Positions 9,088-37,276 of a stretch of DNA of 64,000 bases are shown in pieces. The translations under genes were made by a program, and so were the position numbers. This DNA is from Minisyncoccota bacterium. Lineage in GTDB: Bacteria > Patescibacteriota > Minisyncoccia > Phycocordibacterales > PALSA-1337. The notes below the pieces were generated by a model. The model saw nothing but the letters and a program-made list of their open reading frames with translations, was not told where the DNA came from and did not search any database. The stretch lies in assembly GCA_041666915.1 (NCBI GenBank), contig JBAYFZ010000003.1, positions 22,394 through 86,393 of the forward strand. Direction: 5' to 3'. The number at the start of each line of letters is the position of its first letter. Within the stretch, counting starts at the first letter, position 1.

Positions 9088-10341
9088 ATGAAGAAAGACT
9101 TTTGGAAAAGATACTATTACGATTATTTAGATTCCTTCGTTTCTTTTCTTGTACCTGTAAATGCAAAAGTTCTTCATCTAAATCAGAATGAATTTGATAC
9201 GGCAAATCTTTTCTCAAATTCTTCTAAGTATGATTATGTGGTCACTTCTGACACTCTGGGTAATATTCGTGATATAGAGTTGTTCCTAAGGGGAACCAAG
9301 AAAATGCTTACAGATGACGGAAGAGTTGTTATAACTCAATATAATGCCCTTTGGGAGCCTATTTTGAGGCTTGCTTCTGCTTTGGGGTTGAGAAAAGCCG
9401 TTATAGAACAGAACTGGCTTTCAATGTTAGATCTAAAAAACTTTGCTTATTTGGCTGGTTTTGAAGTTATAAAATCTGGTACAAAATTGATTTTACCTGT
9501 TTATATTCCGATCCTATCATTCGTTTGTAATAAATTTTTGATGAATATTTGGCCATTTTCTCATCTTGGTCTTTTTCATTATATTGTTGCAAGAAAGTCC
9601 GGATTAAAGACAGGTGATAAACCATCTATATCTATTGTTGTCCCTGCTAGGAATGAAGCTGGAACAATAGAAAAAATAGCTAGAGAATTGCCAGAATTAG
9701 GTTCGTTCACAGAAATAATTTTTATTGAGGGTAATTCAACCGATAACACTTATTCTGAAATACAAAGAGTTGTAAAGATTTTTGGTAAGACAAAGAAAAT
9801 CAAGTTTGCAAAACAAAGTGGAAAAGGAAAAGGTGATGCTGTCAGAAAAGGTTTTGATATGGCAACTGGTGATATTCTCGCTATATATGATGCTGATATG
9901 ACAGTTCCAGCTGATGAAGTCGTCAAATTCTATGAAGCTATCGTCAGTAATAAAGGGGATTTTATTAATGGGTCTCGTTTGGTCTATCCTATGCAAAAGG
10001 AATCAATGCGAGTTTTGAATTTCTTTGGAAATAAGTTTTTCAGTTTGGCTTTTAGTTGGATTTTGGGACAACCACTCAAAGATACACTTTGTGGTACAAA
10101 AGTCTTGTGGCGTAGTGATTATGAAAAAATCAAACAAGGCAGAACTTTCTTCGGTGATTTTGATCCTTTTGGTGATTTTGATCTCCTGTTTGGTGCAGCA
10201 AAATTAAATTTGAAAATTATTGATATGCCAGTTCATTATGGAGAACGTGTCTATGGCACGACCAACATAAGTCGTTGGAAACATGGATGGTTACTCTTGA
10301 AGATGACAGTTTTCGCTTCAAAAAAGATGAAATTTTTGTAG
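9088..10341 (+). CDS. GT2 glycosyltransferase (polyprenol-phosphate sugar synthase / GtrB-like) with an N-terminal methyltransferase-like domain
   Basis: C-terminal half: SIVVPARNEAGTIEKI ... IYDADMTVPADEV (the GT-A DXD motif). Confidence 0.65.
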   Translation: MKKDFWKRYYYDYLDSFVSFLVPVNAKVLHLNQNEFDTANLFSNSSKYDYVVTSDTLGNIRDIELFLRGTKKMLTDDGRVVITQYNALWEPILRLASALGLRKAVIEQNWLSMLDLKNFAYLAGFEVIKSGTKLILPVYIPILSFVCNKFLMNIWPFSHLGLFHYIVARKSGLKTGDKPSISIVVPARNEAGTIEKIARELPELGSFTEIIFIEGNSTDNTYSEIQRVVKIFGKTKKIKFAKQSGKGKGDAVRKGFDMATGDILAIYDADMTVPADEVVKFYEAIVSNKGDFINGSRLVYPMQKESMRVLNFFGNKFFSLAFSWILGQPLKDTLCGTKVLWRSDYEKIKQGRTFFGDFDPFGDFDLLFGAAKLNLKIIDMPVHYGERVYGTTNISRWKHGWLLLKMTVFASKKMKFL

Positions 10342-10349: not shown

Positions 10350-11258
10350 TTATTTTTTGACAGCAAAAATATTTTTGAATGATTCACCTTTGGGGAAAGT
10401 CTGAATAAATTCTTCTATATTTGTTATTGGTTGAATATCTTTTTTATTTTCATCTATTAGAGAAAGCGAAAAGCCAAGTCCCGCTAGGTTTTCAAGATAT
10501 CTTTGAGCATTGCCACCTAGTCTGGCCATGGCTTTTGGATAGACTTCAGTGAAGATTATCAAGTTAGGGCTTTTTTGTATTGTTTCTCGCATACCTTCTA
10601 GTGCCAAGAATTCAGCTCCTTCTATGTCTATTTTTATAATATCTATCTTTGGCGAACCAAATTGTTTGAGAGAATTATCTAAAGTATCCAATTCTATTGT
10701 TAATCCTGGTTTATCTTTGTCATAGACTAGAGAATGATGACCTTTATTATTTGGATCTAGATACAATGTATTTGAACCTTTTTTGTCGGACAAACCAATT
10801 TTTTGTGCTTTTACATTTGTAAGTCTATTGACCTCAATATTTTTTTGAAGAAAAGAGTAGTTTCTATTTTCTGGTTCGTAGGCGAATATTTTGCCGTTTG
10901 ATCCAATGTGTCCGCTAGCTATTATGGTGTAGTATCCGATATTTGCACCGATATCAACTACGGTAAAACCATTTTTCAGTGATTTTCGGAATAGCTCTAT
11001 CTCGGTATCTTCAAAACTTCCTAGAGCAAGTGTTCCTGACACTGCCACATCAGTTTGATCCAGTATGATAGTACCTTCTTGGATATTTATCTGTGGGGGG
11101 ATCTTGGATAAGATGATCTTATTTAGAATTGTTTTTAGAATTGGTACAAGTGATGCTGTACGGTAGATTTTTGCTGGTATAGAGGGTGGTAATAGACCAA
11201 TGATCTTTGTTAAAACCGAAGCGTGTCTATCGGATTTGAGAGCTTGTTGTTTCGGCAT
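10350..11258 (-). CDS. FkbM-family methyltransferase
   Basis: VVDIGANIGYYTIIAS, ending ...FAVKK. This is the Methyltransf_21 pattern. Confidence 0.75.
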   Translation of the reverse strand: MPKQQALKSDRHASVLTKIIGLLPPSIPAKIYRTASLVPILKTILNKIILSKIPPQINIQEGTIILDQTDVAVSGTLALGSFEDTEIELFRKSLKNGFTVVDIGANIGYYTIIASGHIGSNGKIFAYEPENRNYSFLQKNIEVNRLTNVKAQKIGLSDKKGSNTLYLDPNNKGHHSLVYDKDKPGLTIELDTLDNSLKQFGSPKIDIIKIDIEGAEFLALEGMRETIQKSPNLIIFTEVYPKAMARLGGNAQRYLENLAGLGFSLSLIDENKKDIQPITNIEEFIQTFPKGESFKNIFAVKK

Positions 11259-11260
11259 AA

Positions 11261-13480
11261 ATGATTATAATTACACGGTTAAAGATTTATATGAAAGCCT
11301 ATAGAGATATTATCATCATACCGACCTATAACGAGAAAGACAACATAGGCAAAATAATTGAAAAAGTTAGTGGGCTTTATCCTGAGCTGGAAATATGGGT
11401 AGTTGACGATAGTTCACCTGATGGAACAGCAAAGATTGTCTCTACAATCATGAAATCCAATCCAAAGGTGAGTTTGATTGTCCGTAAAGCAAAGACTGGT
11501 CTAGGCGATGCTTATAAAGATACTTTGATCAAAATCCAAAAAATGGGTGATGTTAGGAGTGTAATAACGATGGATGCTGATGGTTCTCATAATCCTTTGA
11601 AGATAAGAGAACTTCTAGATTCGCTTCAAAAAGTTGATTTGAGTATTGGTTCTAGATATACGAGCGGCGGTGGTGGAATGAAGGGTATGGGCATGTATAG
11701 GAATTTTTTGAGTATGGGTGGCAATCTATATGCTAGGATTATTATTGGTTTTGGTATCAATGATTCTACTGCTGGTTTTGTAGCCTTCAGGAGAACTGCT
11801 TTGGACGGTATCAATATTCCTGCTATTGCTAGTGCTGGTTATTCTTATCAAATAGAATTCAAGAATACTTTACTTGAAGCTGGAAGAAGTTGGAATGAAA
11901 TTCCTATTACTTTTGTTGATCGTATAGTAGGTACATCAAAAATGTCTGGAAGGATTATCAAAGAGGGAATTTTGACCCCTTGGAGAATAGCGGCTCGTAA
12001 AACATTCAAATGGTCACATTTCAAAGAGGTTTTGAAAAAAGCTTTACTGATTTCTACTGTGCTCTGTGCTTTTATGTTTGCTCTTTTCCATTTAAAAGAG
12101 AGTCCACCTGTCTGGTATGACGAAGGCTTGTATATTCAGGATGCTGTAAACCTTGTCCAAGATGGAATCGTAGGAGTTAGGTTTTCTCCAGATATTATCC
12201 GTCATGTTTCGGAGTTTAGTGTTGGTTTTCCATTGACTTATTCTTTGGCCGGATTTTTCAATATTTTTGGAATAGATATTTTCACAGCACGTTTGCTTAT
12301 GATTTTGTTTATTTTAGGTCTTATCATTTCTAGTTATTTTCTCATAAAGAAACTATATGGCAGAAATATAGCGATAATTTCTACAATTTTATTGTCTACA
12401 TTTCCACCTTTATATGGTAATGGTAAAAGTGTATTAGGTGAGACACCAGGATTGTTGTTTTTAGTCTTAGCTTTATTGTTTGTTTATTTAGCTAGAACAA
12501 AATTTGGATCAAGGAATAAATATATCGTGTTTGCTGGTTTATTTGTTGGTTTGGCTGTAGCTACAAAACCATTCTTTCTTATATTGATTCCAGCGCTTAT
12601 TGTTGGTTTGTTTTCCAGTAGAAAAATTATGCAGATTAAGATGTCTGATCTATATCTAGGTTCAATAGCTACGTTGATACCGATAATTATTTGGCTGACA
12701 ACCCAGTTCCAATCAGGAGATTCATTCTTGAAGATTTTTTCTTTCTACGCCAACCCCTATCAAGTTTCTAGTATTATTAGCATAGTCTTTAATAGTATTA
12801 AAAGTCTATTTACCAGTGTAGGCCCGCTATATCTTATGGTGGTATTGTTTGTCTGGTTGGTATCTTTGATAATTAAGTTTAAGAGACGTTCAGAAATTTC
12901 TCCAGAGGAAATAACAGCCTTCACTTTTTCTGTTCTCTGTGTTTTGGCTTATTTGAGAATATCAGGAATCTTTAGATACCTTTATCCAGCTCAAGTGATT
13001 TCTTTGATTTTCTTTCCATCAGCTTTAGCTTACATACTAAATACATTTTCAACTTCATGGTTTGATAATACGAAAAAGAAATTTGTAACGCTTGGTTTGG
13101 CTATTGTATTTATACCACTGACATTTCTCGGTATATATCAAGTTCTCTTCAATTCTTGGGTTGCTGAAGCTTATGGATCAAATAAGACTGCTGATTGGCA
13201 AAATTACTTTGAGAAGTTACCCTCAAAAGAATCCGTTTTCTTTTACGATACTCCTGAAGTTGCGATCTTTATGAATGGTAGTAATTATTATCAATATATA
13301 GAACCAGCGCCAAGTATGAAGATTGGTACTGAAGAATTGGATGTTATACGTCAAGGTATAACCGATAAAGTAGTTATTACTACAGGTAGATTGAGCGGAC
13401 TTGATCAGAGCCTGTTTGTAAAATATAGTTTAGACAAAACCTTTTACAAATATTCTATTTTGAAAAAGATTAAGAAATAG
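11261..13480 (+). CDS. Fusion: GT2 polyprenol-phosphate-sugar synthase (DPM1-like) + C-terminal polytopic GT-C-like membrane domain
   Basis: N-terminus: IIIPTYNEKDNIGKII, VVDDSSPDGT, DADGSHNP. After about residue 250 there are 10 or more TM helices, with a PMT/ArnT-like DE motif (PPVWYDEGLYIQDA) after the first TM. Confidence 0.65.
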   Translation: MIIITRLKIYMKAYRDIIIIPTYNEKDNIGKIIEKVSGLYPELEIWVVDDSSPDGTAKIVSTIMKSNPKVSLIVRKAKTGLGDAYKDTLIKIQKMGDVRSVITMDADGSHNPLKIRELLDSLQKVDLSIGSRYTSGGGGMKGMGMYRNFLSMGGNLYARIIIGFGINDSTAGFVAFRRTALDGINIPAIASAGYSYQIEFKNTLLEAGRSWNEIPITFVDRIVGTSKMSGRIIKEGILTPWRIAARKTFKWSHFKEVLKKALLISTVLCAFMFALFHLKESPPVWYDEGLYIQDAVNLVQDGIVGVRFSPDIIRHVSEFSVGFPLTYSLAGFFNIFGIDIFTARLLMILFILGLIISSYFLIKKLYGRNIAIISTILLSTFPPLYGNGKSVLGETPGLLFLVLALLFVYLARTKFGSRNKYIVFAGLFVGLAVATKPFFLILIPALIVGLFSSRKIMQIKMSDLYLGSIATLIPIIIWLTTQFQSGDSFLKIFSFYANPYQVSSIISIVFNSIKSLFTSVGPLYLMVVLFVWLVSLIIKFKRRSEISPEEITAFTFSVLCVLAYLRISGIFRYLYPAQVISLIFFPSALAYILNTFSTSWFDNTKKKFVTLGLAIVFIPLTFLGIYQVLFNSWVAEAYGSNKTADWQNYFEKLPSKESVFFYDTPEVAIFMNGSNYYQYIEPAPSMKIGTEELDVIRQGITDKVVITTGRLSGLDQSLFVKYSLDKTFYKYSILKKIKK

Positions 13481-17087: not shown

Positions 17088-18113
17088 CTACATCTTTAGT
17101 ATACTTTTTATCAGTATCTTAATGTTGTCAATTGATTTTTTATTCGTAACTAACTTATAGAGTGGTGATGTTTTAAACGCTTTCCACGTCTTCAGTCCTT
17201 GAGTGGTATTAAAACCACAAATTGTTCGCCATCTTTTGTAGACGATTTTATTTAGAGAGTCACTATTATAGATATTAGATTTTATATTTTGTGAGATTAT
17301 TTTCGATAACCAAATATCCTCTTTTTCTATAAAAGATTTAATAGTCTGATATTCTTTTGGTAGTATGGAATTATGGAGACGAATTTCTTCTTCAGATGGT
17401 TTTAGGTCAATTTTATTTAATAATCGAAGTCTAATATTTGTGGCCACATCGGATGTTTCTTTTTTGAAAATTTGCGATGTACTTTTGTCGTGAATACGGT
17501 ATTTCAATAATACTTTATCAATATTAGCAACGTGGAAAAAATTAGTGCACCTGCTCCAAAGATCATAATCTTCACCGTGATTTAGGTTTTCATTATAGGA
17601 TAGACAAAATTTATCGAATAGACTTTTCTTTATCATTACTGAAGGATGAATAAGTGATGTGTTAAATAGAAGGCTAGCCCTAATATCTTCAGGATTTGTA
17701 TAAACTTTATTTACTGTTGATTTACCGTATCCGAACGATTTACACCATGAACCGCATAGACCAACTTCGGGGTGAGAATTCATAAATTCTACCTGTTTTT
17801 CTAGACGCTTAGGTAAACTTATGTCGTCAGCATCCATTCTAGCGATATATTCTCCTTTGGCCTCTTTAATACCTAAGTTGAGTGCTTTTGGTAGATTATC
17901 ATCAGCAGTACGAAATATAAGACGTATTCTATTGTCATTGAATGAATTTATTACATCTAGGCTTTCTTTGTTTGTAGTTGCAGAGATTAAAATTAGTAGT
18001 TCAAAGTTTTTGTATGTTTGATCTAAAATACTTTGTATAGCCTGTCCGACGTATTGTTCACCGTTATGAACAGGTAAAATAACACTTATCAACTGTGGTT
18101 GTTTTTTATTCAT
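17088..18113 (-). CDS. Glycosyltransferase family 2
   Basis: ISVILPVHNGEQYV ... RMDADDISLPKRLEKQVEFM. Confidence 0.75.
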   Translation of the reverse strand: MNKKQPQLISVILPVHNGEQYVGQAIQSILDQTYKNFELLILISATTNKESLDVINSFNDNRIRLIFRTADDNLPKALNLGIKEAKGEYIARMDADDISLPKRLEKQVEFMNSHPEVGLCGSWCKSFGYGKSTVNKVYTNPEDIRASLLFNTSLIHPSVMIKKSLFDKFCLSYNENLNHGEDYDLWSRCTNFFHVANIDKVLLKYRIHDKSTSQIFKKETSDVATNIRLRLLNKIDLKPSEEEIRLHNSILPKEYQTIKSFIEKEDIWLSKIISQNIKSNIYNSDSLNKIVYKRWRTICGFNTTQGLKTWKAFKTSPLYKLVTNKKSIDNIKILIKSILKM

Positions 18114-19095
18114 TCTTAAAAATGATCTCAGATTTTTTATTGGTAAAAGAGAATGGAATATGACGCAAATCTTTCAAAGCATCTTTTAGTTTTTCTTGAT
18201 TCTTCTTTTCACAATAGAATAGGAGACAACCACCACCTCCAGCCCCTAGAAGTTTGCCGCCCAAAGCACCATTTTTAAGTCCAATCTCATAGTATTTATC
18301 AATAATACTATTTGATATTGTTGAAGCCACTGTCTTTTTTAGAAGCCAACCTTTGTGTAGTAATTCTCCGAATTTATCTATACTATCGTCTTCAAGGGCA
18401 TTTCTCATTTCATGGGCAAGTTCTGTCATCTTTCGTAGGGTTGATACAGTTTCTCCGGATTTTTTTATATTATTCTTTTGTTCGCCTAGGATATCATCGG
18501 CTGAACGAGTAATCCCGGTGTAAAAAAGTACAAGATTTTCATTTAGTTCCTTCTTTTTCTTAGGAGAAATATTTACGGGCTCCACTATGACCTTGTTATT
18601 TGGAAGAAATCTATAAAAATTAAAACCTCCATATGCTGAGGCATACTGATCCTGTTTTCCAATTGGATGTCTGAGTTTGTTTATCTCTATATCACAAGCA
18701 TAAGAAGCAAGTTCTTCGGGAGTTAGCTTTTTGTGTTTATATGCACTTAGTGCGTTGTATAAACCAACCGCAAAAGCGCTTGATGAGCCCAGTCCAGTCT
18801 TTGTTGGCACATCTCCAGAACTAGCAATTTCAAGCCCTGTGATTTTTGTATCAGTGAGGATGGTCCTGAATATATCGTTTTTTAAATCTCTTGCGTCAGT
18901 AACTTCTTCAGTTTGGGAATATTTTACTAATAATCTATCAGTGTAAAAGTTTGGATGTAAAAAAATATGGATGTATTTATCGATTGCTGTGCTGATAACA
19001 GCACCTTCCTGTTTTTCATAAAAATCTGGCATATCAGATCCACCTCCTGCGAAACTTATACGAAGTGGGGTTCTACTGATTATCATATTAATCAA
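18106..19095 (-). CDS. GHMP-family sugar kinase (HddA / fucokinase-like)
   Basis: N-terminal SRTPLRISFAGGGSDMPDFY is the hallmark of D-glycero-D-manno-heptose-7-P kinase and fucokinase. The ATP-binding loop PTKTGLGSSSAFAVG is present. Confidence 0.7.
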   Translation of the reverse strand: MINMIISRTPLRISFAGGGSDMPDFYEKQEGAVISTAIDKYIHIFLHPNFYTDRLLVKYSQTEEVTDARDLKNDIFRTILTDTKITGLEIASSGDVPTKTGLGSSSAFAVGLYNALSAYKHKKLTPEELASYACDIEINKLRHPIGKQDQYASAYGGFNFYRFLPNNKVIVEPVNISPKKKKELNENLVLFYTGITRSADDILGEQKNNIKKSGETVSTLRKMTELAHEMRNALEDDSIDKFGELLHKGWLLKKTVASTISNSIIDKYYEIGLKNGALGGKLLGAGGGGCLLFYCEKKNQEKLKDALKDLRHIPFSFTNKKSEIIFKNE

Positions 19096-19142
19096 TATTA
19101 TACTATTCTATCTTTATTTCCAAGCTTTGTTATAATACAAAA

Positions 19143-20066
19143 ATGTTAAAAAATAAGACTATTTTGGTAACCGGTGGTGCTGGATTTATAGGATCCAATA
19201 CCGTAGAACTTCTTTGTGATCAGGGGTATTCGGTTCGAGTAATTGATGATTTGTCTTTCGGGTTTAAGAAATTTTTGGACCCTAGAGCGAAATTTTATGA
19301 AGCTTCAATAGCAGATGAGAAGGTACTAGAAGAAGCTTTATTGGGAGTTGATGCGGTATTTCACTTTGCAGCATCGAGTATTATCAAATTTTCTATTGAT
19401 GACCCAGCATCTTATTTTGAAAATAATATAATCAATGGCGTTAAGTTGCTCGATTCTATGCGTAAAATTGGAGTAAAGAAAATTATCTTTTCTTCCTCAG
19501 CTTCTGTATATGGTGAGCCTGAACAAGTCCCAGTAAAAGAAGATCAGATGAAAAAGCCACTTCAACCTTATGGGGCTAGTAAGTTAGCCTTTGAAGCTGT
19601 GTTATCAGCTTATTACCATAGTTTTGGTATAGAGAGTACCTCATTGCGATATTTCAATGCTTATGGCCCAAGAGATGAGCAAATACCTGCTACGAGGGCG
19701 GTACCGATGTGGATAAAGGAAATATTGGCGAATGAGCCCATTAAAGTATATTGGAAAGGTTGTCAACTTAGAGATTACGTCTTTGTAAAAGATATTGCTC
19801 AAGCACATATAGATGTTCTTGATCTTGGTGGTTGTAACGTCTTCAATGTTGGTTCTGGTACAGGGGTAGTTATGACAGATCTATTGGAAGAAATATTCGA
19901 GATTATTGTCAAACGAAATGAGGTTATTGATTTGGGTGAACGTGTAGGCGATCCGATGAAACTTGTTGCGGATACGAGTGCAATATACAAAGCTGTTGGA
20001 TGGAGACCAAAATATTCTTTACATGATGGGCTTGTAGAAGCAATAAACTTTTATAAGAATCAATGA
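19143..20066 (+). CDS. NAD-dependent sugar epimerase (SDR extended family, GalE-like)
   Basis: VTGGAGFIGSN is the Rossmann motif. Catalytic S...YGASK is present. There is no TDE dehydratase motif. Confidence 0.8.
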   Translation: MLKNKTILVTGGAGFIGSNTVELLCDQGYSVRVIDDLSFGFKKFLDPRAKFYEASIADEKVLEEALLGVDAVFHFAASSIIKFSIDDPASYFENNIINGVKLLDSMRKIGVKKIIFSSSASVYGEPEQVPVKEDQMKKPLQPYGASKLAFEAVLSAYYHSFGIESTSLRYFNAYGPRDEQIPATRAVPMWIKEILANEPIKVYWKGCQLRDYVFVKDIAQAHIDVLDLGGCNVFNVGSGTGVVMTDLLEEIFEIIVKRNEVIDLGERVGDPMKLVADTSAIYKAVGWRPKYSLHDGLVEAINFYKNQ

Positions 20067-21271
20067 AAGCTGTAATTTTATGTGCAGGACTTGGTACTAG
20101 ACTCCGTCCTATAACAAATACGATCCCTAAAGTGATGATTCCTATAGGGGGAAAGCCATTACTTCAACATCATATAGAATGGCTGGTCGGAAATGGAATA
20201 AGAGATATAGGGATAAATTTATTTTATTTACCTGAAGTTGTGGTGGATTATTTCGGTGATGGATCAAAATTTGGTGCACGTATACATTATTCGCATCAGA
20301 AAACTTTATCTGAAACTGCGAGCGGTTTCAAAAATTTTAAAGATTTTGTTGGCAATGAAAGTTGTTTGATTGTTTATGGAGATAACATGTTTGATTTGAG
20401 TGTTTCAGATTTTTCCGATTATCATAAGAAGAAAGGAGGCCTTGCAACTATTGCACTCAAAGAATGGGAAAATCCAGGATCAAAAGGTATAGTTGGCTTG
20501 GATAAAGAAGAAAAGATCTTGTGGTTCAGAGAAAAGCCACAGCCTCATGAAATAACAACAAATGTTGGCAATGCGGGAATATACATAGTAGAACCAGAGA
20601 TTTTTTCTTTCATACCTAGTGATAGAGATTATGATTTTGGTAAGGATATTTTTCCAGCACTTTTGAATGAAGGCAAATTTATTTATGGATACCATTTACA
20701 GGGGTATCATATTGATATTGGCTCCCCAGAAGCTTTAGTGAAAGCTCGGGAAGATTACAAAATATTGTTTCCCAATAAGGCAATATTTATTGATCGTGAT
20801 GGCGTCTTGAATAGAAAACCTAGAGAACATGACTATGTAAAGAATTTCAGCGAATTTTTTTGGAATGATGGGGCTCAAGATCTGATTAAAGAATTTAAAA
20901 CTCGGGGATTTTTGGTTATTGTTATCAGTAATCAACAGGGAATTGCTAAGGGTAAGGTTTCAGAAAAGTTCATTGAGGATTTGCATAAAAAGATGAACGA
21001 AGATCTCAAAACTATCGGAACGAATATCGACGGTTTCTATTATTGCCCGCATCTTGAATCTGAAGGTTGCGTGTGCCGGAAACCTAGCCCAGGACTTTTA
21101 TTTAAGGCTGAATATGATTATAAGATTGATATGTCTAGAAGTTTTATGATTGGTGATTCCAAAAGCGATATTGAGGTGGGGGACAGGGCTGGATGTTTTA
21201 CAATTCAAATTGAGACAGATCTAATTGGTGGACGTTCTGTTCTAGATAAGATAATGCAGAGAGATAAATAG
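20063..21271 (+). CDS. Bifunctional sugar-1-phosphate nucleotidyltransferase (HddC/ManC-like) + HAD phosphatase (GmhB-like)
   Basis: N-terminus: MKAVILCAGLGTRLRPITNTIPKVMIPIGGKPLL. C-terminus: AIFIDRDGVLN ... CPHLESEGCVCRKPSPGLL (the GmhB zinc loop) ... GDSKSD. Confidence 0.7.
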   Translation: MKAVILCAGLGTRLRPITNTIPKVMIPIGGKPLLQHHIEWLVGNGIRDIGINLFYLPEVVVDYFGDGSKFGARIHYSHQKTLSETASGFKNFKDFVGNESCLIVYGDNMFDLSVSDFSDYHKKKGGLATIALKEWENPGSKGIVGLDKEEKILWFREKPQPHEITTNVGNAGIYIVEPEIFSFIPSDRDYDFGKDIFPALLNEGKFIYGYHLQGYHIDIGSPEALVKAREDYKILFPNKAIFIDRDGVLNRKPREHDYVKNFSEFFWNDGAQDLIKEFKTRGFLVIVISNQQGIAKGKVSEKFIEDLHKKMNEDLKTIGTNIDGFYYCPHLESEGCVCRKPSPGLLFKAEYDYKIDMSRSFMIGDSKSDIEVGDRAGCFTIQIETDLIGGRSVLDKIMQRDK

Positions 21272-21296: not shown

Positions 21297-22070
21297 TTAT
21301 AGTTTTATCCAACTAGAAGGAATAAGACCTGTCTCTTCTTTATTTTTTTCAACAAACCATTTTTGTGGTGTTGTTACGATTTTTTGTGGGTTTGTATTTA
21401 ACCAAGCACTCCACCAACTAAATGTGCTGTTTGCTGTGATATTATGTTTGCATTGAGTCATAAGGTAGAGTTCTTCAGAATTAGAAAAACCATTTCCAGA
21501 TACGAATTTGATTGGAATATCAAAAGGTATCTTTAAGTTATTTCTTACCCAATCTATATCATCGGAAAAAACAAATACTTTTAATTTATTACTCGAGACA
21601 TCATTTGTTATACCTAGTGTGGTACGAATTTTTTCTATTGCTTTTGAGTAGTATTCTAGTGGAATTTGAAGGTAAACTTTTTGGTTCTTTGTTGCCAGGT
21701 AGTCAGTTCGTCGTATGTGGAGAGAAACTGATTCAGTATTTTTAATTTCTGAAAGATAGGGGTTTAGCTTTTCTTCGTTAATATTTTTTAGTTGGAATTC
21801 TTTTCGTATTATTTTTTCTATAGATTTAAAATACTGTTCACTTTGGAAATAGCCTATAACATGTGTATTGAAAGGATTTAATCTATCAATAAGATTTGCC
21901 ACTTTCGCGTTGATTGAGAAATTTCCTAATTCGTAAGTCCGAAAATTCTTTCGGTCGTATTCTCTCGTATCTAATAATAGTTTCGTATTATTTTTTATAC
22001 TCAAAGAACGTCCCATTGCATATTGGAACATTTGATTACCGAGACCTCCTTGTAGTTTAACGATGATCAT
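21297..22070 (-). CDS. GT11 alpha-1,2-fucosyltransferase-like
   Basis: N-terminal MIIVKLQGGLGNQMFQYA is the GT11 signature. C-terminal STFSWWSAWL. Confidence 0.75.
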   Translation of the reverse strand: MIIVKLQGGLGNQMFQYAMGRSLSIKNNTKLLLDTREYDRKNFRTYELGNFSINAKVANLIDRLNPFNTHVIGYFQSEQYFKSIEKIIRKEFQLKNINEEKLNPYLSEIKNTESVSLHIRRTDYLATKNQKVYLQIPLEYYSKAIEKIRTTLGITNDVSSNKLKVFVFSDDIDWVRNNLKIPFDIPIKFVSGNGFSNSEELYLMTQCKHNITANSTFSWWSAWLNTNPQKIVTTPQKWFVEKNKEETGLIPSSWIKL

Positions 22071-22820: not shown

Positions 22821-24464
22821 TTATTTTTTAATAAACCAAAAACAACCACAGCCGTAATTTTGAATATTTGCGATTTCTTCTGTAGCATTCTTTATAATTC
22901 CAGCATAGCTTGCATTATCAGGAATCAGGGTGAATTCTTTCAGATCGAATCCTGTAAATAATGAAACAATCTGTTTATAGGAGTAAACACGATGGGAATT
23001 GAATATAACCTTTGGTTTCCCAATAGGTATAACAAAGAGCAAGCTTCCTCCTATTGCTGTAACCCTCTTTAGCTCATCTATAGCTTTGATGTCTGCTGTG
23101 GGATCTATTGGATCACCATATCTCCCTAGTCCTATATGTTCTACTGTATGCATGCATGATATAGAAGTGATACTGTTGTTTTTTAACGGTAATGAAAGAA
23201 GATCTCCTTTTCTTGATTCTAAATCACTCAATGTTATCTTTGCTGGACGAAAGTCGTAGAATTTTACGGGTATAAAGGCTGATAGTATTGATGAAAAAGA
23301 AAGTGTTGATGATATGTCTACGTGAAATTCTGGGTTAATTTGTTTAACTATCCTAGCCGCCCAAGCAGGATGGTAAATATAGTGAGTATCAAATTTTGTG
23401 TCCGCGGTTTTGTCATTCAGTTCTGGTCGTCTATTTTTCCATGAGATTTTAAATCTATAGTCTTTTTTAGACGTAGAATATTGTCGAAATTTTACGAATT
23501 CTTTTAAGTAGATTGTATATTTATAGATCTTTTTTATTGAATTGTAGATTTTTGAAGGAATAAATCTTTTTATTTTTGATAAAAAGGAACTATCAGATAG
23601 AACTATTTTGTAGCCGGTTGTACCAACCTCGCCTGACTTGACTCGTATAGGTCTGTAAATGTAGTTTCTATATTCAAACCATTCTTTTCCACCTTTTTCA
23701 CTGGCAATGTACGCAGCATCCTCATCATTTAATAAGTGTAAATATGGCAATATCATTTTGGTTGCCATGATTGAACTTTTACCAATATCTTGAGCCTTAC
23801 GAACAAACAAGGAATTAATACCATAACGATGTAAATAATATGAATTAGGTAACACAACAAATTTTGCTCCGTTGACGAGTTGTTTGAGAGTAAAACCCCA
23901 TGCTTCCTGAACCCCTTCTCCATATTCCCAATAACCACCGATTTTCTCCCAACTTTTTTTCGTGTACATGAAGTTACCACCAGGTCCGGGATTGATTGGT
24001 CCAGCTAAGAAATCTGCTAGATTCATAACGCCTGGTTTATATGTCCACTTGTGTGTTATTTTATTTATTTTATGTTTTTGAAAATAATGGTATTCACTGA
24101 AAGAAGCCATGTCAGCGTTTTCTGAAAGCAAATAGTTTTTCATTCGTTTGATACTTCCTGGAATCAGGACATTGTCTGAATCTAGATTGAAGATAAGGGG
24201 ATTCTTCGATCTTCTAACACCTATATTGCGACTTGCGGGACACCCAACATTTTTTGGATTATCAATTTCGATTATCGTTGTAAACCTTTTTTTGAGCTTC
24301 CGAATAACGTCTCTTGTCGCATCTGTTGATGCATTGTCAACGATTATAACTTCATCACCATCTTCAAAGTTGCCATTATAAATAGATTCGACCGCTTCAG
24401 CTAAGGTGTCAATACTATTGTACGCCGGTATGACGAAGCTTACTTTTTGATTATTGTTATTCAT
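22821..24464 (-). CDS. GT2 glycosyltransferase fused to a C-terminal DUF268-like putative methyltransferase domain
   Basis: N-terminus: VSFVIPAYNSIDTL, IIVDNASTDAT. C-terminus: SISCMHTVEHIGLGRYGDPIDP ... LLFVIPIGK. Confidence 0.55.
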   Translation of the reverse strand: MNNNNQKVSFVIPAYNSIDTLAEAVESIYNGNFEDGDEVIIVDNASTDATRDVIRKLKKRFTTIIEIDNPKNVGCPASRNIGVRRSKNPLIFNLDSDNVLIPGSIKRMKNYLLSENADMASFSEYHYFQKHKINKITHKWTYKPGVMNLADFLAGPINPGPGGNFMYTKKSWEKIGGYWEYGEGVQEAWGFTLKQLVNGAKFVVLPNSYYLHRYGINSLFVRKAQDIGKSSIMATKMILPYLHLLNDEDAAYIASEKGGKEWFEYRNYIYRPIRVKSGEVGTTGYKIVLSDSSFLSKIKRFIPSKIYNSIKKIYKYTIYLKEFVKFRQYSTSKKDYRFKISWKNRRPELNDKTADTKFDTHYIYHPAWAARIVKQINPEFHVDISSTLSFSSILSAFIPVKFYDFRPAKITLSDLESRKGDLLSLPLKNNSITSISCMHTVEHIGLGRYGDPIDPTADIKAIDELKRVTAIGGSLLFVIPIGKPKVIFNSHRVYSYKQIVSLFTGFDLKEFTLIPDNASYAGIIKNATEEIANIQNYGCGCFWFIKK

Positions 24465-26317: not shown

Positions 26318-27379
26318 CTAACGTCCGGCGTCAACTTTTACAGTTGAAGCTAGCTTGCTATATCTTTTTTTGAATAATTTTGAAGATATTCTAGAAATTA
26401 TACTTGCACCCCTTGTGATTTCCGGTTTTATTGTTACCCTAACTTTACTAGAATGAGCGTTGTCTCTATTTAATGTATTCATCACCTCACATAATCTAGG
26501 AAAAATCTGATATCTATCTAATATCTGTTTTTTTGCTTCAGATATTTCTTTATGGAATTTTCTGTAATAATCATTTTGAATAGCATTTTCAATAGCCAAT
26601 ATTGCTTCAAAAGGTTTATTTATATCTATCTTTACTATTGTATTTGGAGAAAAATAATCATCGATATTTGGGCAGCCAAAATAGAATGGATAAGATTCAG
26701 CTAATAATGAGTCCGCGAGTTTTTCAGTCCAATAATTTTTATATACGTTATTTTCAATAACTACGTGATATCTGTAAGGAGCGATTCCGTCCCATTTGTC
26801 TGATATCATGTTGATACCGGAACCTAACACATCGAGTTTTTCTTTGAAATGATCTTTTAAAATTTTTATGAATTTTAATCTTTTTCGGTGTCCTCGGGTC
26901 GTAGTTTTACTCGATGATATCACTGATATTAATTTTGTCTTGGATATATCGGTAAGCCGTTTCAATTCATCGTAACTCTTTGTGAAAGGACCAAGTTTAT
27001 TGTTTTTTAAATCAAAATGAGCACCAATATACCACGGTAAGAGCTGGAATTTAAAAATATTTTTATTATCTAATCCTTCTTGAGTAGTGATGATGGTATT
27101 AAACTGCTTGGTGAAGTCTTTGTTGTATTTTTTTATACTTGGAGGTTCACCTGTAATAAGTATTGTATTTTCCGGATAGCACTTTATTGTTTGTTCTCTT
27201 GGTATTCCATCAATGATTACCCACCAGTCAAATTCTTCTGTATTGTCGTCTGTATAAAATTGGTAATTTCCCCAAATCCCCTTTGATTCTGGAGTCTGTC
27301 TCAAGAATGACCAACCATGAGAGTTTGATGATATTTTGACTTTGATTCTTTCGTTCATATTATTATGATTTGTACCCAA
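26318..27379 (-). CDS. GT10-like alpha-1,3/4-fucosyltransferase (candidate)
   Basis: C-terminal YRYHVVIENNVYKNYWTEKLADSLLAESYPFYFG resembles the GT10 F-x-L-x-FENS-x4-Y-x-TEK motif. Confidence 0.45.
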   Translation of the reverse strand: MGTNHNNMNERIKVKISSNSHGWSFLRQTPESKGIWGNYQFYTDDNTEEFDWWVIIDGIPREQTIKCYPENTILITGEPPSIKKYNKDFTKQFNTIITTQEGLDNKNIFKFQLLPWYIGAHFDLKNNKLGPFTKSYDELKRLTDISKTKLISVISSSKTTTRGHRKRLKFIKILKDHFKEKLDVLGSGINMISDKWDGIAPYRYHVVIENNVYKNYWTEKLADSLLAESYPFYFGCPNIDDYFSPNTIVKIDINKPFEAILAIENAIQNDYYRKFHKEISEAKKQILDRYQIFPRLCEVMNTLNRDNAHSSKVRVTIKPEITRGASIISRISSKLFKKRYSKLASTVKVDAGR

Positions 27380-28091
27380 TCAATCTTTTTATAGACCTCT
27401 TGATTTTCTTCATTATTACTTCGTATTTATTTTTTAGTGGTTCTTTGTATGTATTGAAAATAGATTTTTTTAATATGAAAATATCATCGATTTTGATTCT
27501 AGTTAGTTTCTTGTATCCTTTATTAGACAAAAAATTATTTAGACGTTTATCTTCAAATGGATTTTCAACAGAGATACATTCAATATGGAAGCGACCAAAA
27601 TCAATTGATTGTAATATTTCTAGTTCGCCACCTTCAGTATCTAAACTGAAGTAGTCTATATGGGAAAGCCTGAATTTTTCTAGGACATCGTTGATTGTCA
27701 TTGTTTGAACATCTATTGTGGTAGTTGTAACTCCACGTTCTGATGCTTCTTTTTGTAGCCTGTCAAGGTATCGTTTATCAAAGGTTTCAACTAATCCAGA
27801 AATCTGACCCATATCTCCAGGCGCTTCAATAAATTTTTTTGTAGTAGCTTTATTCGAAGAGATAGCTATGTTTGTTGTCTGACAGTGGCGGTTTTTTACA
27901 AGTTTTTCGTAGGCGGACTTTCTTGGTTCTATACATAAACCTGACCAACCCCTTTCGCGTTCAAAGAAAAGAGTATTGCTACCAACCACTCCGTCATCTG
28001 CACCCATCTCCAGAAATACTCCATTTTTGAATTGTTTGAATACATTTTCATCGAGAAATTTATCCTGATTGTATTGGCTATAGTATCTCAT
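27363..28091 (-). CDS. FkbM-family methyltransferase
   Basis: FLEMGADDGVVGSNTL ... IDYFSLDTEGGE. Confidence 0.7.
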   Translation of the reverse strand: MRYYSQYNQDKFLDENVFKQFKNGVFLEMGADDGVVGSNTLFFERERGWSGLCIEPRKSAYEKLVKNRHCQTTNIAISSNKATTKKFIEAPGDMGQISGLVETFDKRYLDRLQKEASERGVTTTTIDVQTMTINDVLEKFRLSHIDYFSLDTEGGELEILQSIDFGRFHIECISVENPFEDKRLNNFLSNKGYKKLTRIKIDDIFILKKSIFNTYKEPLKNKYEVIMKKIKRSIKRLIGYKS

Positions 28092-28093: not shown

Positions 28094-28840
28094 TTATTTT
28101 ATTAGTTCTGTTCTGATAAAAATTGCATCCCCAGAGATTAATACATTATCTTTGTCATAGTATAGATTGAAATTTTTATAAAAATGGTAATCATATTGAG
28201 CTAAGAATTTCTCTATGTCTTTGAATAATGGTTGGTTTTTGTAAATAGCTACAAATTCAACTTCAGAGTATATAAGATCAATAGCTTTTTTTGAAAGCAT
28301 CTCTTTTGCACCTTCAAGGACCAACATTTCTCCACCCTGAACATCTATTTTGAGAATGTTTATATGATTCAAATTATTCTTATCACAAAAATTGTCGAGA
28401 GTATTTGTAATAATCTGAATTTGTGATTTTGATTTCAAATTTTCTTTACCGCTGTATTTATCGTCGAAAGGTAAGAGGGAATTGGTATAGTGACATTCGT
28501 TAGAATAAAAAGATGCTGTTCCGGTGTGATTTGAAAGGGCGATATTGTTTCGTAGTGTCATTTTGTCGCCGTCAGTATTGTTTGAATATATTTTAAAAAC
28601 ATCCTTGAATGGTTCGAAACCAAATATTTTACTTTTTGGAAATAGTTTACGATATTTTTGTGTTGTCTGACCTACATTTGCTCCGACGTCAAAAATAATT
28701 TTAGTATTGGTATCTCGTAATAATTTTTTTTGTTCAATGAAATCTGAAGTCATTATTATTTTCCTTAGGCTTAAATCAAGACCAAGAAATTTTCTTGCCA
28801 TAGATTTTATTAATTTCTTTGTATCTTGTATCAGTTTCAT
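28094..28840 (-). CDS. FkbM-family methyltransferase
   Basis: IFDVGANVGQTTQKY ... ILKIDVQGGE. Confidence 0.7.
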   Translation of the reverse strand: MKLIQDTKKLIKSMARKFLGLDLSLRKIIMTSDFIEQKKLLRDTNTKIIFDVGANVGQTTQKYRKLFPKSKIFGFEPFKDVFKIYSNNTDGDKMTLRNNIALSNHTGTASFYSNECHYTNSLLPFDDKYSGKENLKSKSQIQIITNTLDNFCDKNNLNHINILKIDVQGGEMLVLEGAKEMLSKKAIDLIYSEVEFVAIYKNQPLFKDIEKFLAQYDYHFYKNFNLYYDKDNVLISGDAIFIRTELIK

Positions 28841-29717: not shown

Positions 29718-30506
29718 TTATTTAGCGTATACGTCCCCGTAATAAATTGGTTGATTGTTTGCATGTTTTTTTTCTATTTCAGATAACAAGTGTTCAGCAT
29801 TAAGCCAATACAGTGATGCCATTTTAGAGTCTGCTGCAATTACAAAATTGAATTCCGTAAAACCTATTGACTGTAATTTAGATACACATCGCTCGGTGTG
29901 CTGTTTGTCGTCAGTGTGGAATTCAAAATTTATAAGCGGGATTTTTTTTGATAAACCTGATAGTACTTCATACTCAAATCCCTCAACGTCTATTTTGCAA
30001 AAATATGGTATGCCATATTTGGAGATAAGTTTGTCTAACGTTGTTATCTTAACTTTTTCGGTTTTCTCGAATGTGTGATATTTTGTTCCTTGTTGCCATG
30101 TCTTGATAAAACTAGAAAACCCTGGATATTTCGTAGAAATGTTGATTTCAGCCTCACCATCTTCTTTGCCAATACCACATCGCTCAACCGCCACATTTTT
30201 ATTATTTGTATATTTTATTCTGAGGCGGTTGGCCAAATCAGATTGTGGTTCTACTGCAATAACCTTGCATCCTAATTTTAAAAATAGATTAGTTTTGTCA
30301 CCAATATTGGCTCCGATATCAAAAATAAGTTTATTTTTGCCGATGTATTTGTTGTAAAATATAAGTTGCTTCCTATCCGATTCCAAGTCTTTTAATGATT
30401 TGATTACCGTCAAGTTTATAAATTTACCAGTCAGATATTGTCTTAGTATTTTTATACTTTCTGAATATGGTCGTTCAAATAATATTTTTTTAATTTTATT
30501 TTTCAT
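29718..30506 (-). CDS. FkbM-family methyltransferase
   Basis: IFDIGANIGDKTNLF ... CKIDVEGFE. Confidence 0.7.
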   Translation of the reverse strand: MKNKIKKILFERPYSESIKILRQYLTGKFINLTVIKSLKDLESDRKQLIFYNKYIGKNKLIFDIGANIGDKTNLFLKLGCKVIAVEPQSDLANRLRIKYTNNKNVAVERCGIGKEDGEAEINISTKYPGFSSFIKTWQQGTKYHTFEKTEKVKITTLDKLISKYGIPYFCKIDVEGFEYEVLSGLSKKIPLINFEFHTDDKQHTERCVSKLQSIGFTEFNFVIAADSKMASLYWLNAEHLLSEIEKKHANNQPIYYGDVYAK

Positions 30507-31776
30507 TTTGTGTGATTGGTTGAGTCTCGTATTTTAAAATAGTGGCTATTTTACCCCAATGATTATCTCCGAATATTGCTTGTCTTGGATTGTTTTTATT
30601 TGTAATTTCAAAATTGATGTCTTTGACTATATCTACACCACTCTTACCCTCATTGAAATGTTTGAAGCTTATTACTACAGAAATATTGCCAATTTGAAAT
30701 AGGGAACTCGGTATTTCAACTCGAGTTTTATATTTTCCTACTTCATAATCGCGATGTTTTCCATTGGCATCTCCTTCTGTAGATACTAATATCAAATCAC
30801 CATGATAATAGAAGTGAAGTACAATAAGTTTATTTTCTAATTTTTTTCTAACATCTAATTCTATCTCTATAAAAAACTTTTCTCCAACGGGTATTTGAGT
30901 CTGAGATTGATTGTCTTTGTCTAATATAACCACTCTTGTGATCTGTCCCTCGGGATTATTGTTGATAGGATATTCTGTAATAGAATCAAGAGTTCTTTCT
31001 GATTGTAGATAGTAGTTGATAACTTCTGAGGTTTTGCCAAATTTAATAAGCTCACCTTTTTTAAGTAAAACAGTTTTGGTACACAATCTTTCAATCGCAT
31101 CTAAATTATGGCTCACGAAAATGATCGTCCTTCCATCCTGATGCGTTACCTCCTCTATCTTACCCAAACATTTCTTTTGGAATTCGGCGTCACCAACGGC
31201 CAAGACTTCGTCAATGATCAAAATATCTGGTTCCATGTGGGCGGCAACGGAGAAGGCGAGGCGAACGTACATGCCACTGGAGTAATATTTTACGGGTGTA
31301 TCCAAGAATTTTTCAATGCCAGCAAATCCGACGATTTGATCAAATTTCTTGGCTATTTCTTTTTGGGTCATACCTAGAATGGCACCGTTGAGAAAAATAT
31401 TCTCGCGGCCGGTAAGTTCTGGATGGAAACCGGTTCCAACTTCTAGGAGACTACCGACTTTACCACGAAGGATTATTTCTCCTTCGGTTGGTGGGGTGAT
31501 TTGAGAAAGAATTTTCAAAAGAGTTGATTTGCCGGCACCATTTTTACCGATGATACCTATAACCTCGCCTTTATTTACGGTGAAGTTAACATCTTTGAGT
31601 GCCCAGAAATCTTCTTTCTTTTCTAAACCAGCAACTGATTTGGCTTTTGTTTTTAGATAAGAAAGAGGTTGCTTGATTATATTCATCATGACGTCACGCA
31701 AAGCAATATAACCACCACGCTCATGGTTTATCTTATATTTTTTACTTATATTTCTTACTTCAATGATAGGTTCCAT
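30496..31776 (-). CDS. wzt: Polysaccharide ABC exporter ATP-binding protein (Wzt/TagH type) with a C-terminal carbohydrate-binding domain
   Basis: Walker A GIIGKNGAGKSTLLKIL, the ABC signature YSSGMYVRLAF, Walker B ILIIDEVLAVGD. There is an extra beta-rich domain of about 150 aa, as in Wzt_C. Confidence 0.8.
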   Translation of the reverse strand: MEPIIEVRNISKKYKINHERGGYIALRDVMMNIIKQPLSYLKTKAKSVAGLEKKEDFWALKDVNFTVNKGEVIGIIGKNGAGKSTLLKILSQITPPTEGEIILRGKVGSLLEVGTGFHPELTGRENIFLNGAILGMTQKEIAKKFDQIVGFAGIEKFLDTPVKYYSSGMYVRLAFSVAAHMEPDILIIDEVLAVGDAEFQKKCLGKIEEVTHQDGRTIIFVSHNLDAIERLCTKTVLLKKGELIKFGKTSEVINYYLQSERTLDSITEYPINNNPEGQITRVVILDKDNQSQTQIPVGEKFFIEIELDVRKKLENKLIVLHFYYHGDLILVSTEGDANGKHRDYEVGKYKTRVEIPSSLFQIGNISVVISFKHFNEGKSGVDIVKDINFEITNKNNPRQAIFGDNHWGKIATILKYETQPITQNEK

Positions 31777-31784
31777 ATATTTTT

Positions 31785-32633
31785 TTAAACAATATCTGCG
31801 AAATATCTTTCAACTTTCTTGAAAACATAAATTCCTACGAATAAAAGTATTACACAAGCAATGAATGAAATACCCAATAACATCCAGTTGATGGGTGCTG
31901 TACCGAGTAAGGCTGCACGAGCATTTTGGATGACTCCCATCATTGGGTTTAGAGCTAAAATTGTTGAATATTTGCCAGCAATACTAGCGGGGTAAATAAC
32001 TGGCGTTACAAACATAAGAATTTGGATGAAAAAGGGAAGGGCGTATCTAACGTCGCGGTATTTGACGTTGATAGCGGCTAGGAATAGTCCGCCACCAACT
32101 GATGCCATGAAAGTGATAATAAGTAGTAGTGGAACAATGAAAAGACCGGCTAGATGAGGAACGTACCCATAGTAGAACATCAGGCCAATCAATATTACTG
32201 AAGCAATAATAAAATCAACCAGCTTTGTCATAACTGAAGAAATGGGGAGGATGAGTCTTGGAAAATAAACTTTGGTGATGATGGCTTGATTGGTTACTAA
32301 AGTAGTACTTGTTTCGGAAAGAGCACCGGAGAAGAATTGCCAAAATAGAAGTCCGACATAAACGAATATAGGGTAGGGTACTCCGTCAGAAGGGATTTTT
32401 GCTAGTCCACCGAAGAAGACTGAAAAGATAACCATTGTTACGAATGGTTGGAAAATAGCCCAAGCAACACCGATAGCAGTTTGTTTGTATCGGACTTTGA
32501 GATCTCTCCAAGTAAAGAAATAAAGTAATTCACGATACTGCCACAGCTCTTTTAGATCAGAGAAATGGAATAATTTTTTTGGTCTTATGACTGTAATTGA
32601 AGAATTCGTTGTCATGGTTTTAGATTTTACCAT
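31785..32633 (-). CDS. wzm: Polysaccharide ABC exporter permease (ABC-2, Wzm type)
   Basis: 282 aa with 6 TM segments and an N-terminal ...LKELWQYRELLYFFTWRDLKVRYKQT motif. It sits immediately upstream of wzt with a start/stop overlap. Confidence 0.75.
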   Translation of the reverse strand: MVKSKTMTTNSSITVIRPKKLFHFSDLKELWQYRELLYFFTWRDLKVRYKQTAIGVAWAIFQPFVTMVIFSVFFGGLAKIPSDGVPYPIFVYVGLLFWQFFSGALSETSTTLVTNQAIITKVYFPRLILPISSVMTKLVDFIIASVILIGLMFYYGYVPHLAGLFIVPLLLIITFMASVGGGLFLAAINVKYRDVRYALPFFIQILMFVTPVIYPASIAGKYSTILALNPMMGVIQNARAALLGTAPINWMLLGISFIACVILLFVGIYVFKKVERYFADIV

Positions 32634-35401: not shown

Positions 35402-35537
35402 GGGAAAAGGGTGCCCGCACTTCGAAGTTCCGTCAGGAACGAAGAAGTGGGGATAACTTGTTGAAAACTCTAAAATAGTGTGGTAGTATACCAATGTGTG
35501 AAGTACGGTGTGAGATCTCCTATATAAATGTTTCGCA

Positions 35538-35563
35538 AAGTCCCGCCTCGGCGGGCTTTTGCG
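35538..35563 (+). terminator. Candidate rho-independent terminator
   Basis: GC stem cccgcc-tc-ggcggg followed by cttttgcg, about 135 nt downstream of the 33140-35401 stop. Confidence 0.35.
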
Positions 35564-35581
35564 TTGTGGAGAGGTGGGGTT

Positions 35582-35621
35582 TTTACGGAAGCGAGGCTTC
35601 CGGAGGTGTAACCTCCGTAAA
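35582..35621. repeat. REP-like palindrome (composite: outer TTTACGGA...TCCGTAAA enclosing the 23-bp REP core)
   Basis: tttacggaagcgaggcttccggaggtgtaacctccgtaaa. The core recurs at least 7 more times in the window. Confidence 0.7.
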
Positions 35622-36822: not shown

Positions 36823-36826
36823 TTTT

Positions 36827-37211: not shown

Positions 37212-37276
37212 AAGAGGCAGTAATGTAACAAAAAGAAAGCACACAAGGCTCGCCTCACCTCAATAAATGTGATAAA

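Follow-up and report, generated by a model that had tools for sequence, protein, structure and literature searches.

A probable heptose-activation module with a fused nucleotidyltransferase–phosphatase in a large glycan cluster of a Patescibacteria bacterium

The stretch of contig JBAYFZ010000003.1 analyzed here, 64,000 nt long and called the window throughout, comes from a Paceibacterota (Patescibacteria) bacterium. At 18106–21271 it carries three genes, encoding a GHMP kinase, a short-chain dehydrogenase/reductase (SDR) and a protein in which a sugar-1-phosphate nucleotidyltransferase (NTase) is fused to a HAD phosphatase. We consider it probable that this module makes a nucleoside diphosphate (NDP)-activated heptose for a surface glycan of the bacterium. 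In the proposed pathway, the HddA-like GHMP kinase would phosphorylate heptose 7-phosphate at O1 to the 1,7-bisphosphate, from which the GmhB-like C-terminal domain of the fusion protein would remove the 7-phosphate. The N-terminal NTase domain of the same polypeptide would then produce NDP-heptose from heptose 1-phosphate and a nucleoside triphosphate, and the coupled GalE-type SDR would most likely epimerize the NDP-heptose before the glycosyltransferases of the cluster use it. A heptose route is the best explanation because the kinase scores, the GmhB domain, the gmhA synteny and the domain fusions in relatives, taken together, point to it. A route of HddA, GmhB and nucleotidyltransferase had been proposed in a preliminary description of this DNA, and it gains support from the placement of the kinase, the presence of gmhA beside orthologous modules and a triple fusion in a relative.

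All three open reading frames (ORFs) of that description are present, with Pfam and NCBIfam E-values from 1e-10 to 1e-58. The kinase gene lies on the minus strand (18106–19086). Its ORF is listed to a TTG at 19095 (329 aa), yet translation probably begins at the ATG at 19086 (326 aa), because the orthologues align from residue 4. A short stretch between divergent genes (19087–19142, read from the sequence) separates it from the plus-strand SDR gene (19143–20066; 307 aa; Pfam Epimerase, 1.6e-58). Inspection of this stretch reveals TATAAT at 19131–19136, immediately 5′ of the SDR start; a promoter and terminator scan of the module region yielded sites not above chance. The SDR stop overlaps by 4 nt the start of the fusion gene (20063–21271, plus strand, 402 aa).

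The kinase matches GHMP_kinases_N (PF00288, 2e-15) and GHMP_kinases_C (PF08544, 1.7e-10), and its top NCBIfam model is HddA (189.3 bits, E 1.3e-55, full length). Against the solved heptose-7-phosphate kinases of Bacteroides, Campylobacter and Burkholderia (3k85, 4n3o and WcbL 4usk) it scores 157, 153 and 135 bits over residues 3–319, at 31–32% identity. The solved Fkp, galactokinase and mevalonate kinase structures reach 47–56 bits, where the matches to the Fkp chains 5yys and 9iip (53–56 bits) and to galactokinase (53 bits) are partial. The residues R13, D22, S118–S120, Q162 and D163, important in WcbL by mutagenesis (PMC4691232), are all matched in the alignment, within PLRISFAGGGSD, GLGSSS and GKQDQY; Q162 has been tied to accommodating the extra carbon of heptose (PMC4691232). 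The preliminary description had left the choice between HddA and Fkp to the placement of the kinase, and both the scores and the WcbL residues put it on the HddA side. The grouping with galactokinases or mevalonate kinases, which was named there as part of a refutation, is not observed (47–56 bits against 135–157 for the heptokinases). By these comparisons the kinase belongs with the heptose kinases and not with Fkp, galactokinase or mevalonate kinase, as an HddA-like enzyme of a divergent lineage and not a member of the curated equivalog.

The fusion protein is identical to MFA6554495.1. Its description as a sugar-1-phosphate nucleotidyltransferase joined to a GmhB-like HAD phosphatase agrees with both domain models and motifs. 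The NTase domain comprises residues 1–235 (20063–20767), with NTP_transferase (PF00483, 2.7e-42) over residues 2–232 and the GLGTR signature at residues 9–13, part of GLGTRLRP, which fits the GxGTRLxP reported earlier along with the kinase motif. The GmhB-like HAD-IIIA domain comprises residues 236–402 (20768–21271), with HAD-IIIA/GmhB models spanning residues 238–386 and the HAD motifs DRDGV at 244, SNQ at 289, RKP at 339 and GDSKSD at 364. The zinc loop is also present, CPHLESEGCVC at residues 328–338, although its spacing is CPHx5CxC and not the CPHx6CxC first given. The same continuous two-domain protein is found in 8 orthologues from different assemblies at 56–70% identity, in which the catalytic residues of both domains, the four HAD motifs and the zinc-loop residues C328, H330, C336 and C338 are invariant; by this conservation, the fusion is real and no assembly artefact. 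The AlphaFold2 model shows two confident domains throughout (pLDDT 96.5, pTM 0.94). Neither a solved structure nor an NCBIfam model covering both domains was found.

The phosphatase domain passes the cutoffs of the HAD-IIIA subfamily, with 107 bits against 44.6 for TIGR01662 (HAD-SF-IIIA) and 127.4 against 84.15 for TIGR01656. HisB models score 77.6–83 bits on it, below the GmhB models, and its match to E. coli GmhB (2gmw/3l8e) is 97 bits versus 65 for HisB-N. The zinc loop is common to HisB-N and hence not specific to GmhB. The GmhB models for the alpha and beta anomers do not discriminate on this domain.

Further evidence comes from gene neighborhoods. The closest relatives were drawn from metagenome and database contigs, with loci numbered L and protein cluster representatives numbered P; a contig scan with the fusion protein as query gave 4 loci. 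In L002/L005, where the fusion is 65% identical, the order is GT2 glycosyltransferase and kinase, then SDR and fusion on the other side, followed by a methyltransferase, gmhA and a GT11 glycosyltransferase. In L089/L090 (fusion 66% identical) gmhA is directly convergent with the fusion gene, and in L091 an unfused NTase gene is followed by gmhA and GT11. L013 holds a four-gene cluster of gmhA-kinase and NTase-gmhB, with an NTase 63% identical to that of the window and neither an adjacent SDR nor another NTase. Thus gmhA (SIS_2) adjoins the orthologous module in all of these loci, and the module-linked gmhA is a genuine one, sharing 58% identity with proteins named D-sedoheptulose 7-phosphate isomerase. 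The window kinase is 66–72% and the NTase domain 71–74% identical to those of the gmhA-linked modules.

The association extends to more distant homologues. NTases 36–63% identical sit in kinase/gmhA/gmhB clusters, and of 33 more distant loci on metagenome contigs (NTase identity at least 36%), about 24 also have a kinase, SIS or GmhB-like HAD gene. The clusters of L013, L014, L018, L019 and L092–94 contain no NTase but that of the window lineage. Heptose clusters that lack an adjoining SDR and have an NTase of this lineage as their only one are L013, L014, L018, L023, L031, L034 and L035.

Starting from GT11 homologues, we also found L092–94, in which one colinear operon reads GT11-gmhA-[methyltransferase]-SDR-NTase-kinase-[gmhB]-GT2, with gmhB called in L092 and L094. 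The window shares this gene set except for gmhA and the optional methyltransferase, and its SDR-fusion pair is inverted. Identity matrices separate two versions of the activation cassette, version A in the window, L002, L089 and L091 and version B in L092–94; between them identity is 37–43% for the NTase, 45–48% for the kinase and 36–40% for the SDR. The gmhA of L002 (version A) is nevertheless 88–89% identical to those of L093 and L094 (version B); the three loci come from JGI sample 3300037810. Because gmhA is this similar while kinase, NTase and SDR share 36–48%, the comparison implies that activation cassettes have been exchanged by recombination beside a conserved GT11-gmhA pair.

Domain fusions in relatives tie the same activities together. 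A census over 1.84 billion cluster representatives, of which the best 150 were examined, found NTase and HAD together in 124, among them 75 of plain NTase-HAD type, 34 extended at the C-terminus and 11 in reverse order. The extension is a PRK/uridine-kinase-like domain in the members scanned. P0365, 42% identical, is a GmhA-NTase-GmhB triple fusion, with 39% identity between its SIS part and the GmhA of L002, and one of the 150, P0483, is NTase-SIS. An SDR is also carried in 3 of the 150 (P0500, P0460 and P0438). The preliminary description had called the fusion notable; it is less so, being common in databases. No description of an NTase-GmhB (HddC-GmhB) fusion was found in the literature searched. 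In L012 and L013 (63–66% identical) NTase and HAD/gmhB are encoded by two genes that overlap in different frames; judged from this arrangement, the window-type fusion is a merger of such adjacent genes.

Other architectures were seen alongside these. Among P0365, P0483, P0500, P0460, P0438 and P0511 are SDR-NTase-GmhB proteins with SDRs of the epimerase and RmlD types, GmhB-NTase followed by an SDR of the GDP-mannose-dehydratase type, and NTase-GmhB-methyltransferase. The 34 extended representatives, proteins of 600–640 aa combining NTase, GmhB-like HAD and a PRK/uridine-kinase-like P-loop domain, are mostly from Bacteroidales. Two such three-domain genes (L015 2683–4554 and L016 10001–11875) are followed by an HddA-like kinase gene, and the one in L016 by gmhA too.

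The NTase domain departs from the route first envisaged. An HddC-type transferase had been proposed; context upholds the NTase role, while membership in the HddC lineage fails, with 101 bits against a cutoff of 300 on the HddC model and 67 bits to YpHddC (5xhw). Matches to GDP-mannose pyrophosphorylases are at 90–97 bits (GMPPB 93), and Foldseek matches the domain to structures of MurU, RmlA and GDP-mannose pyrophosphorylase. Among solved structures 8x7s (tlr0611) comes closest to it, with 157 bits, 34% identity by Foldseek and the same fold. No match to Fkp was obtained for this domain in NCBIfam or PDB. By these scores the NTase lies outside the HddC lineage; by analogy it would work like HddC nonetheless, and it presumably acts on heptose 1-phosphate.

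HddC reads guanine through Glu80 of its EXXPLGTGGA motif, a position at which uridylyl- and thymidylyltransferases carry Gln (PMC6981941). Inspection of the nucleotide-specificity motifs, as recommended in the preliminary description, shows that the window NTase has QKTLSETASG at this site and Gln79 in place of the guanine-reading Glu. All 8 fused orthologues have Gln79, as do 22 of the 24 closest homologues. Among more distant fused homologues in the P0001–P0120 alignment, the residue is Glu in 74 and Gly, Thr or Ser in 21; GMPPB aligns with Glu. The Glu form of the loop occurs with LGTAG in its 74 sequences, the Gln form with LSETAS or LSGTAG in a Patescibacteria clade, and the Gly/Thr/Ser form (YSIGDVSFETGKRIK) in 21 sequences that include Fusobacteriaceae and Falkowbacteria proteins. 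The three loop forms may reflect different nucleotides. GTP would be the nucleotide by analogy with the known route, and Gln at the base-reading site would point away from GTP and makes the nucleotide uncertain.

Prediction of the nucleotide by a Glu/Gln rule was judged unsafe. The UTP-annotated 8x7s has Glu by alignment, beside a 9-residue insertion. The rule is also undercut by version-B operons, which pair a Glu-type NTase with an SDR passing the GalE cutoff, and by GT11 proteins that are 65–71% identical across Gln-type and Glu-type cassettes. That the Gln-type domain dispenses with GTP in making its product for Patescibacteria surface glycans is a tentative idea, to which we give rather less than even credence. 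We know of no alpha-configured pyrimidine nucleotide heptose in nature so far.

The SDR has the motifs GGAGFIG at 11, SSSASVYG, and YGASK at 143, and the Asp-Glu pair of the dehydratase TDE motif was not found in it. It scores 233.8 bits on the GalE model TIGR01179, which does not reach the cutoff of 262.3, and aligns along its full length with the Thermotoga maritima UDP-glucose 4-epimerase 4zrm at about 41% identity (205 bits). The SDR-NTase order and the 4-nt overlap are kept in L001, L002, L089, L091 and L092, hence in both cassette versions. An assignment as NDP-heptose epimerase is suggested, and we favor it because of this 4-nt coupling and the SDR-NTase-GmhB fusions P0500 and P0460.

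Several observations weigh against the heptose pathway. The kinase stays below the HddA equivalog cutoff (NF049969, 189.3 of 600 bits), as does the version-B kinase of L092 with 163 bits. The NTase domain likewise falls short of the HddC equivalog NF049965, on which all tested heptose-context NTases of the window lineage reach about 90–125 bits. The phosphatase domain misses the curated GmhB cutoffs (PRK08942, 147.5 of 178; TIGR00213, 127.5 of 149.6; NF050049, 114.6 of 250). No gmhA or other SIS-domain gene is present in the 64-kb window, which confirms the earlier remark on gmhA, and the L001 module lacks gmhA within 10 kb; if the pathway is complete, gmhA would be elsewhere in the genome. 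Further points concern the SDR and NTase. The structure 8x7s was deposited as a UTP-glucose-1-phosphate uridylyltransferase. The version-B SDR of L092, 36–40% identical to that of the window, passes the GalE cutoff with 381.6 bits, and the window SDR looks like an ordinary UDP-hexose 4-epimerase and may be unrelated to heptose. In L006/L010/L011 (8912–14714), a window-type SDR (73%) and an unfused, Glu-type NTase of window type (71%) occur with a distant second set (34–37%) comprising kinase, gmhA, NTase and gmhB genes, so that one heptose cluster has two NTases.

In one rival reading, the SDR and NTase form an ordinary UDP-glucose pyrophosphorylase/4-epimerase pair for UDP-galactose, with the heptose genes as mere neighbors or with a promiscuous NTase. 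The similarity to 8x7s, the likeness to T. maritima GalE, the GalE-type SDR of version B, the second NTase beside gmhB in L006, and Gln at the base-reading site as in uridylyl- and thymidylyltransferases (PMC6981941) all favor such a pair. Nevertheless, it leaves the fusions of the NTase unaccounted for, to GmhB in 124 of the 150 representatives, to GmhA in P0365 and to SIS in P0483. It does not fit the L013 cluster, whose NTase serves with gmhA, kinase and gmhB alone, and without the window-type NTase the L092–94 operons would stop at heptose 1-phosphate. We regard a UDP-galactose pair as unlikely.

A mutase-independent hexose route can also be conceived, in which the kinase acts at O1 of mannose 6-phosphate or glucose 6-phosphate, the 6-phosphate is removed and the NTase activates the hexose 1-phosphate. 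It would account for the lack of gmhA in the window and the L001 flanks and of any PGM/PMM gene seen in the window, and the sugar pocket of WcbL accommodates D-mannose (PMC4691232). However, the high identity of the kinase and NTase to their gmhA-linked orthologues gives no hint that specificity has changed, the counterpart of WcbL Q162 is retained, and a pathway gene located elsewhere has a precedent in Campylobacter jejuni, where gmhB lies outside the capsule cluster (PMC10680097). This route is very improbable. The split Fkp-like L-fucose salvage offered in the preliminary description, with the kinase making fucose 1-phosphate and the NTase making GDP-fucose for GT11/GT10 transferases, has on its side two GT11 genes and one GT10 gene in the cluster, the absence of gmd/fcl from the window and a weaker Fkp kinase-domain match (53–56 bits in PDB; 104 bits on NCBIfam PRK13412, cutoff 721, over residues 86–295, two thirds of the protein), but it is rejected as scarcely credible, since Fkp reaches about one third of the heptokinase phmmer score and half of the NCBIfam HddA score, such a salvage route offers no task for a bisphosphate phosphatase of GmhB type fused to the NTase, several relatives link gmhA to the orthologous module, and Gln replaces the guanine-reading Glu.

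Comparison with known systems places the heptose pathway proposed here as a variant of an established one, new in its fusion, NTase lineage, base-reading residue and GalE-type SDR. The GDP-heptose route has reportedly been characterized in Aneurinibacillus thermoaerophilus. In its textbook form it is known from Campylobacter jejuni, Yersinia pseudotuberculosis and Burkholderia pseudomallei (WcbL/WcbN/WcbM) (PMC10680097, PMC4691232, PMC6981941). The same steps are encoded here, with a GHMP O1 kinase that has the same catalytic residues, a HAD-IIIA 7-phosphatase and a sugar-1-phosphate nucleotidyltransferase, in a surface-polysaccharide cluster and with linkage to gmhA in relatives. In contrast, phosphatase and transferase are one polypeptide in the window, the transferase is outside the HddC lineage and has Gln and LSETAS where HddC has Glu80 and PLGTGG, the SDR is GalE-like whereas known GDP-heptose modification uses GMD/GFS-like dehydratase and reductase, and gmhA is absent from the window.

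Consecutive steps of heptose activation are also fused in HldE and the multidomain ADP-beta-heptose enzymes (kinase/nucleotidyltransferase and isomerase/kinase/nucleotidyltransferase fusions), and by the evidence in PMC11573728 the nucleotide can vary among members of the HldE-type family. Those enzymes combine a ribokinase-type kinase with a cytidylyltransferase-type NTase and handle the beta anomer, whereas the window has a GHMP kinase and an RmlA/GalU-type NTase; a phosphatase never occurs in HldE-type fusions and is the fused partner here. Fkp of Bacteroides (5yys, 9iip) similarly couples a GHMP kinase and a pyrophosphorylase to supply a GDP-sugar to GT11/GT10-type transferases, but it has no phosphatase domain, and the kinase, not the phosphatase, is fused to the transferase. 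The closest NTase structure, tlr0611 of Thermosynechococcus, which we take to be a UDP-glucose pyrophosphorylase other than GalU, of the CugP type, has a C-terminal left-handed beta-helix and no GmhB domain, carries its 9-residue insertion in the base-reading loop and has no heptose context. HisB of gamma-proteobacteria (PMC9798254) resembles the window protein in having a GmhB-type HAD-IIIA zinc-loop domain fused to an enzyme of the same pathway, imidazoleglycerol-phosphate dehydratase; the pathway is a different one, and the window domain scores 147.5 bits as GmhB versus 77.6–83 as HisB-N.

The assignment gives a concrete handle on cell-surface display in Patescibacteria, in which heptose synthesis (Parcubacteria/Patescibacteria) was not found described in the literature searched. 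To our knowledge these bacteria, whose genomes are very small, do not make lipopolysaccharide. It would also place in heptose biosynthesis a large family of NTase-GmhB fusions labelled 'HAD-IIIA family hydrolase' at NCBI and 'D,D-heptose 1,7-bisphosphate phosphatase' at JGI. With at least three forms of the base-reading loop, and in light of the recent finding of CDP- and UDP-beta-heptoses, the family is worth searching for new nucleotide-activated alpha-heptoses. Nothing here overturns current understanding; what is gained is a useful annotation and a testable lead.

The module is flanked by two glycosyltransferase genes. On one side, a GT2 gene (17088–18113, minus strand; Glycos_transf_2, 7.5e-28) overlaps the kinase stop by 8 nt. 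On the other, a GT11-family gene (21297–22070, minus strand; Glyco_transf_11, 9.6e-30), with the HxRRxD motif as HIRRTD at residue 118, is convergent with the fusion gene and lies 25 nt further downstream. GT2 orthologues of 49–60% identity adjoin the kinase or gmhB gene in L002, L089, L091 and L092–94, and GT11 is next to gmhA in L002 and L091–L094. No gmd/fcl was seen in the flanks of the GT11 loci. When GT11 homologues were picked regardless of gmhA, two loci (L095 8001–9868 and L096 8001–9838) had GT11 overlapping a GT2 of about 340 aa and no heptose genes within 8 kb. This arrangement makes the heptose genes look optional, inserted into a GT11-GT2 pair that is itself conserved. The proposal that GT11 is the heptosyltransferase was downgraded on account of L095 and L096; that the GT11 kept beside gmhA transfers the module heptose is a weaker companion idea, weakened by the same two loci. 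The L095 and L096 clusters make other sugars, with FdtA/DegT, NeuB and UDP-glucose dehydrogenase.

The module is part of one very large glycan cluster of about 31 kb (1848–32633). Its glycosyltransferases comprise five GT4, six GT2 (some fused to a methyltransferase, PMT_2 or DUF268), two GT11 and one GT10-like, and it also encodes two further PMT_2 proteins, GtrA, a Wzm/Wzt-type ABC transporter and a Wzy_C/TPR protein. The fusions are methyltransferase-GT2 at 9088–10341, GT2-PMT_2 at 11261–13480 and GT2-DUF268 at 22821–24464. There are about 11 methyltransferases, six of class I, counting the GT2 fusion, and five of the FkbM type (10350–11258, 27363–28091, 28094–28840, 29718–30506 and one within 24–31 kb). 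This content points to a polysaccharide that is heavily methylated and exported through the Wzm/Wzt pair at 30496–32633. Searches of the 64-kb window found no gmd/GMD, fcl/Fcl, PGM/PMM, second nucleotidyltransferase or second SDR, and Rfam and tRNA scans of it returned no matches.

Outside the cluster are housekeeping genes, such as those for MurB, SecA, Obg and GatB. A gene for a TraG/VirD4-like coupling protein (7–1827) lies on one flank and Wzy_C/TPR-MurB-SecA (33140–39988) on the other; in L001 1–21209, on a 981-kb Patescibacteria contig, the same flanks enclose a far shorter cluster that has a Wzx-type flippase. The site is a conserved chromosomal one with variable glycan content. An IS200-like Y1 transposase gene (43017–43628, minus strand) lies between obg and gatB. 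Further downstream, an ORF of at least 4,597 codons (50208–64000, plus strand) runs off the window end; it has a signal-like hydrophobic start, one fibronectin type III match in the first 1,000 residues and a Pro/Thr/Ser-rich sequence at the window end, and probably encodes a giant surface protein. Just upstream, at 46351–50178 on the plus strand, are four successive ORFs of 225–391 aa with no Pfam match, the last of which has an N-terminus (MNKNFIKNL...) resembling that of the giant ORF.

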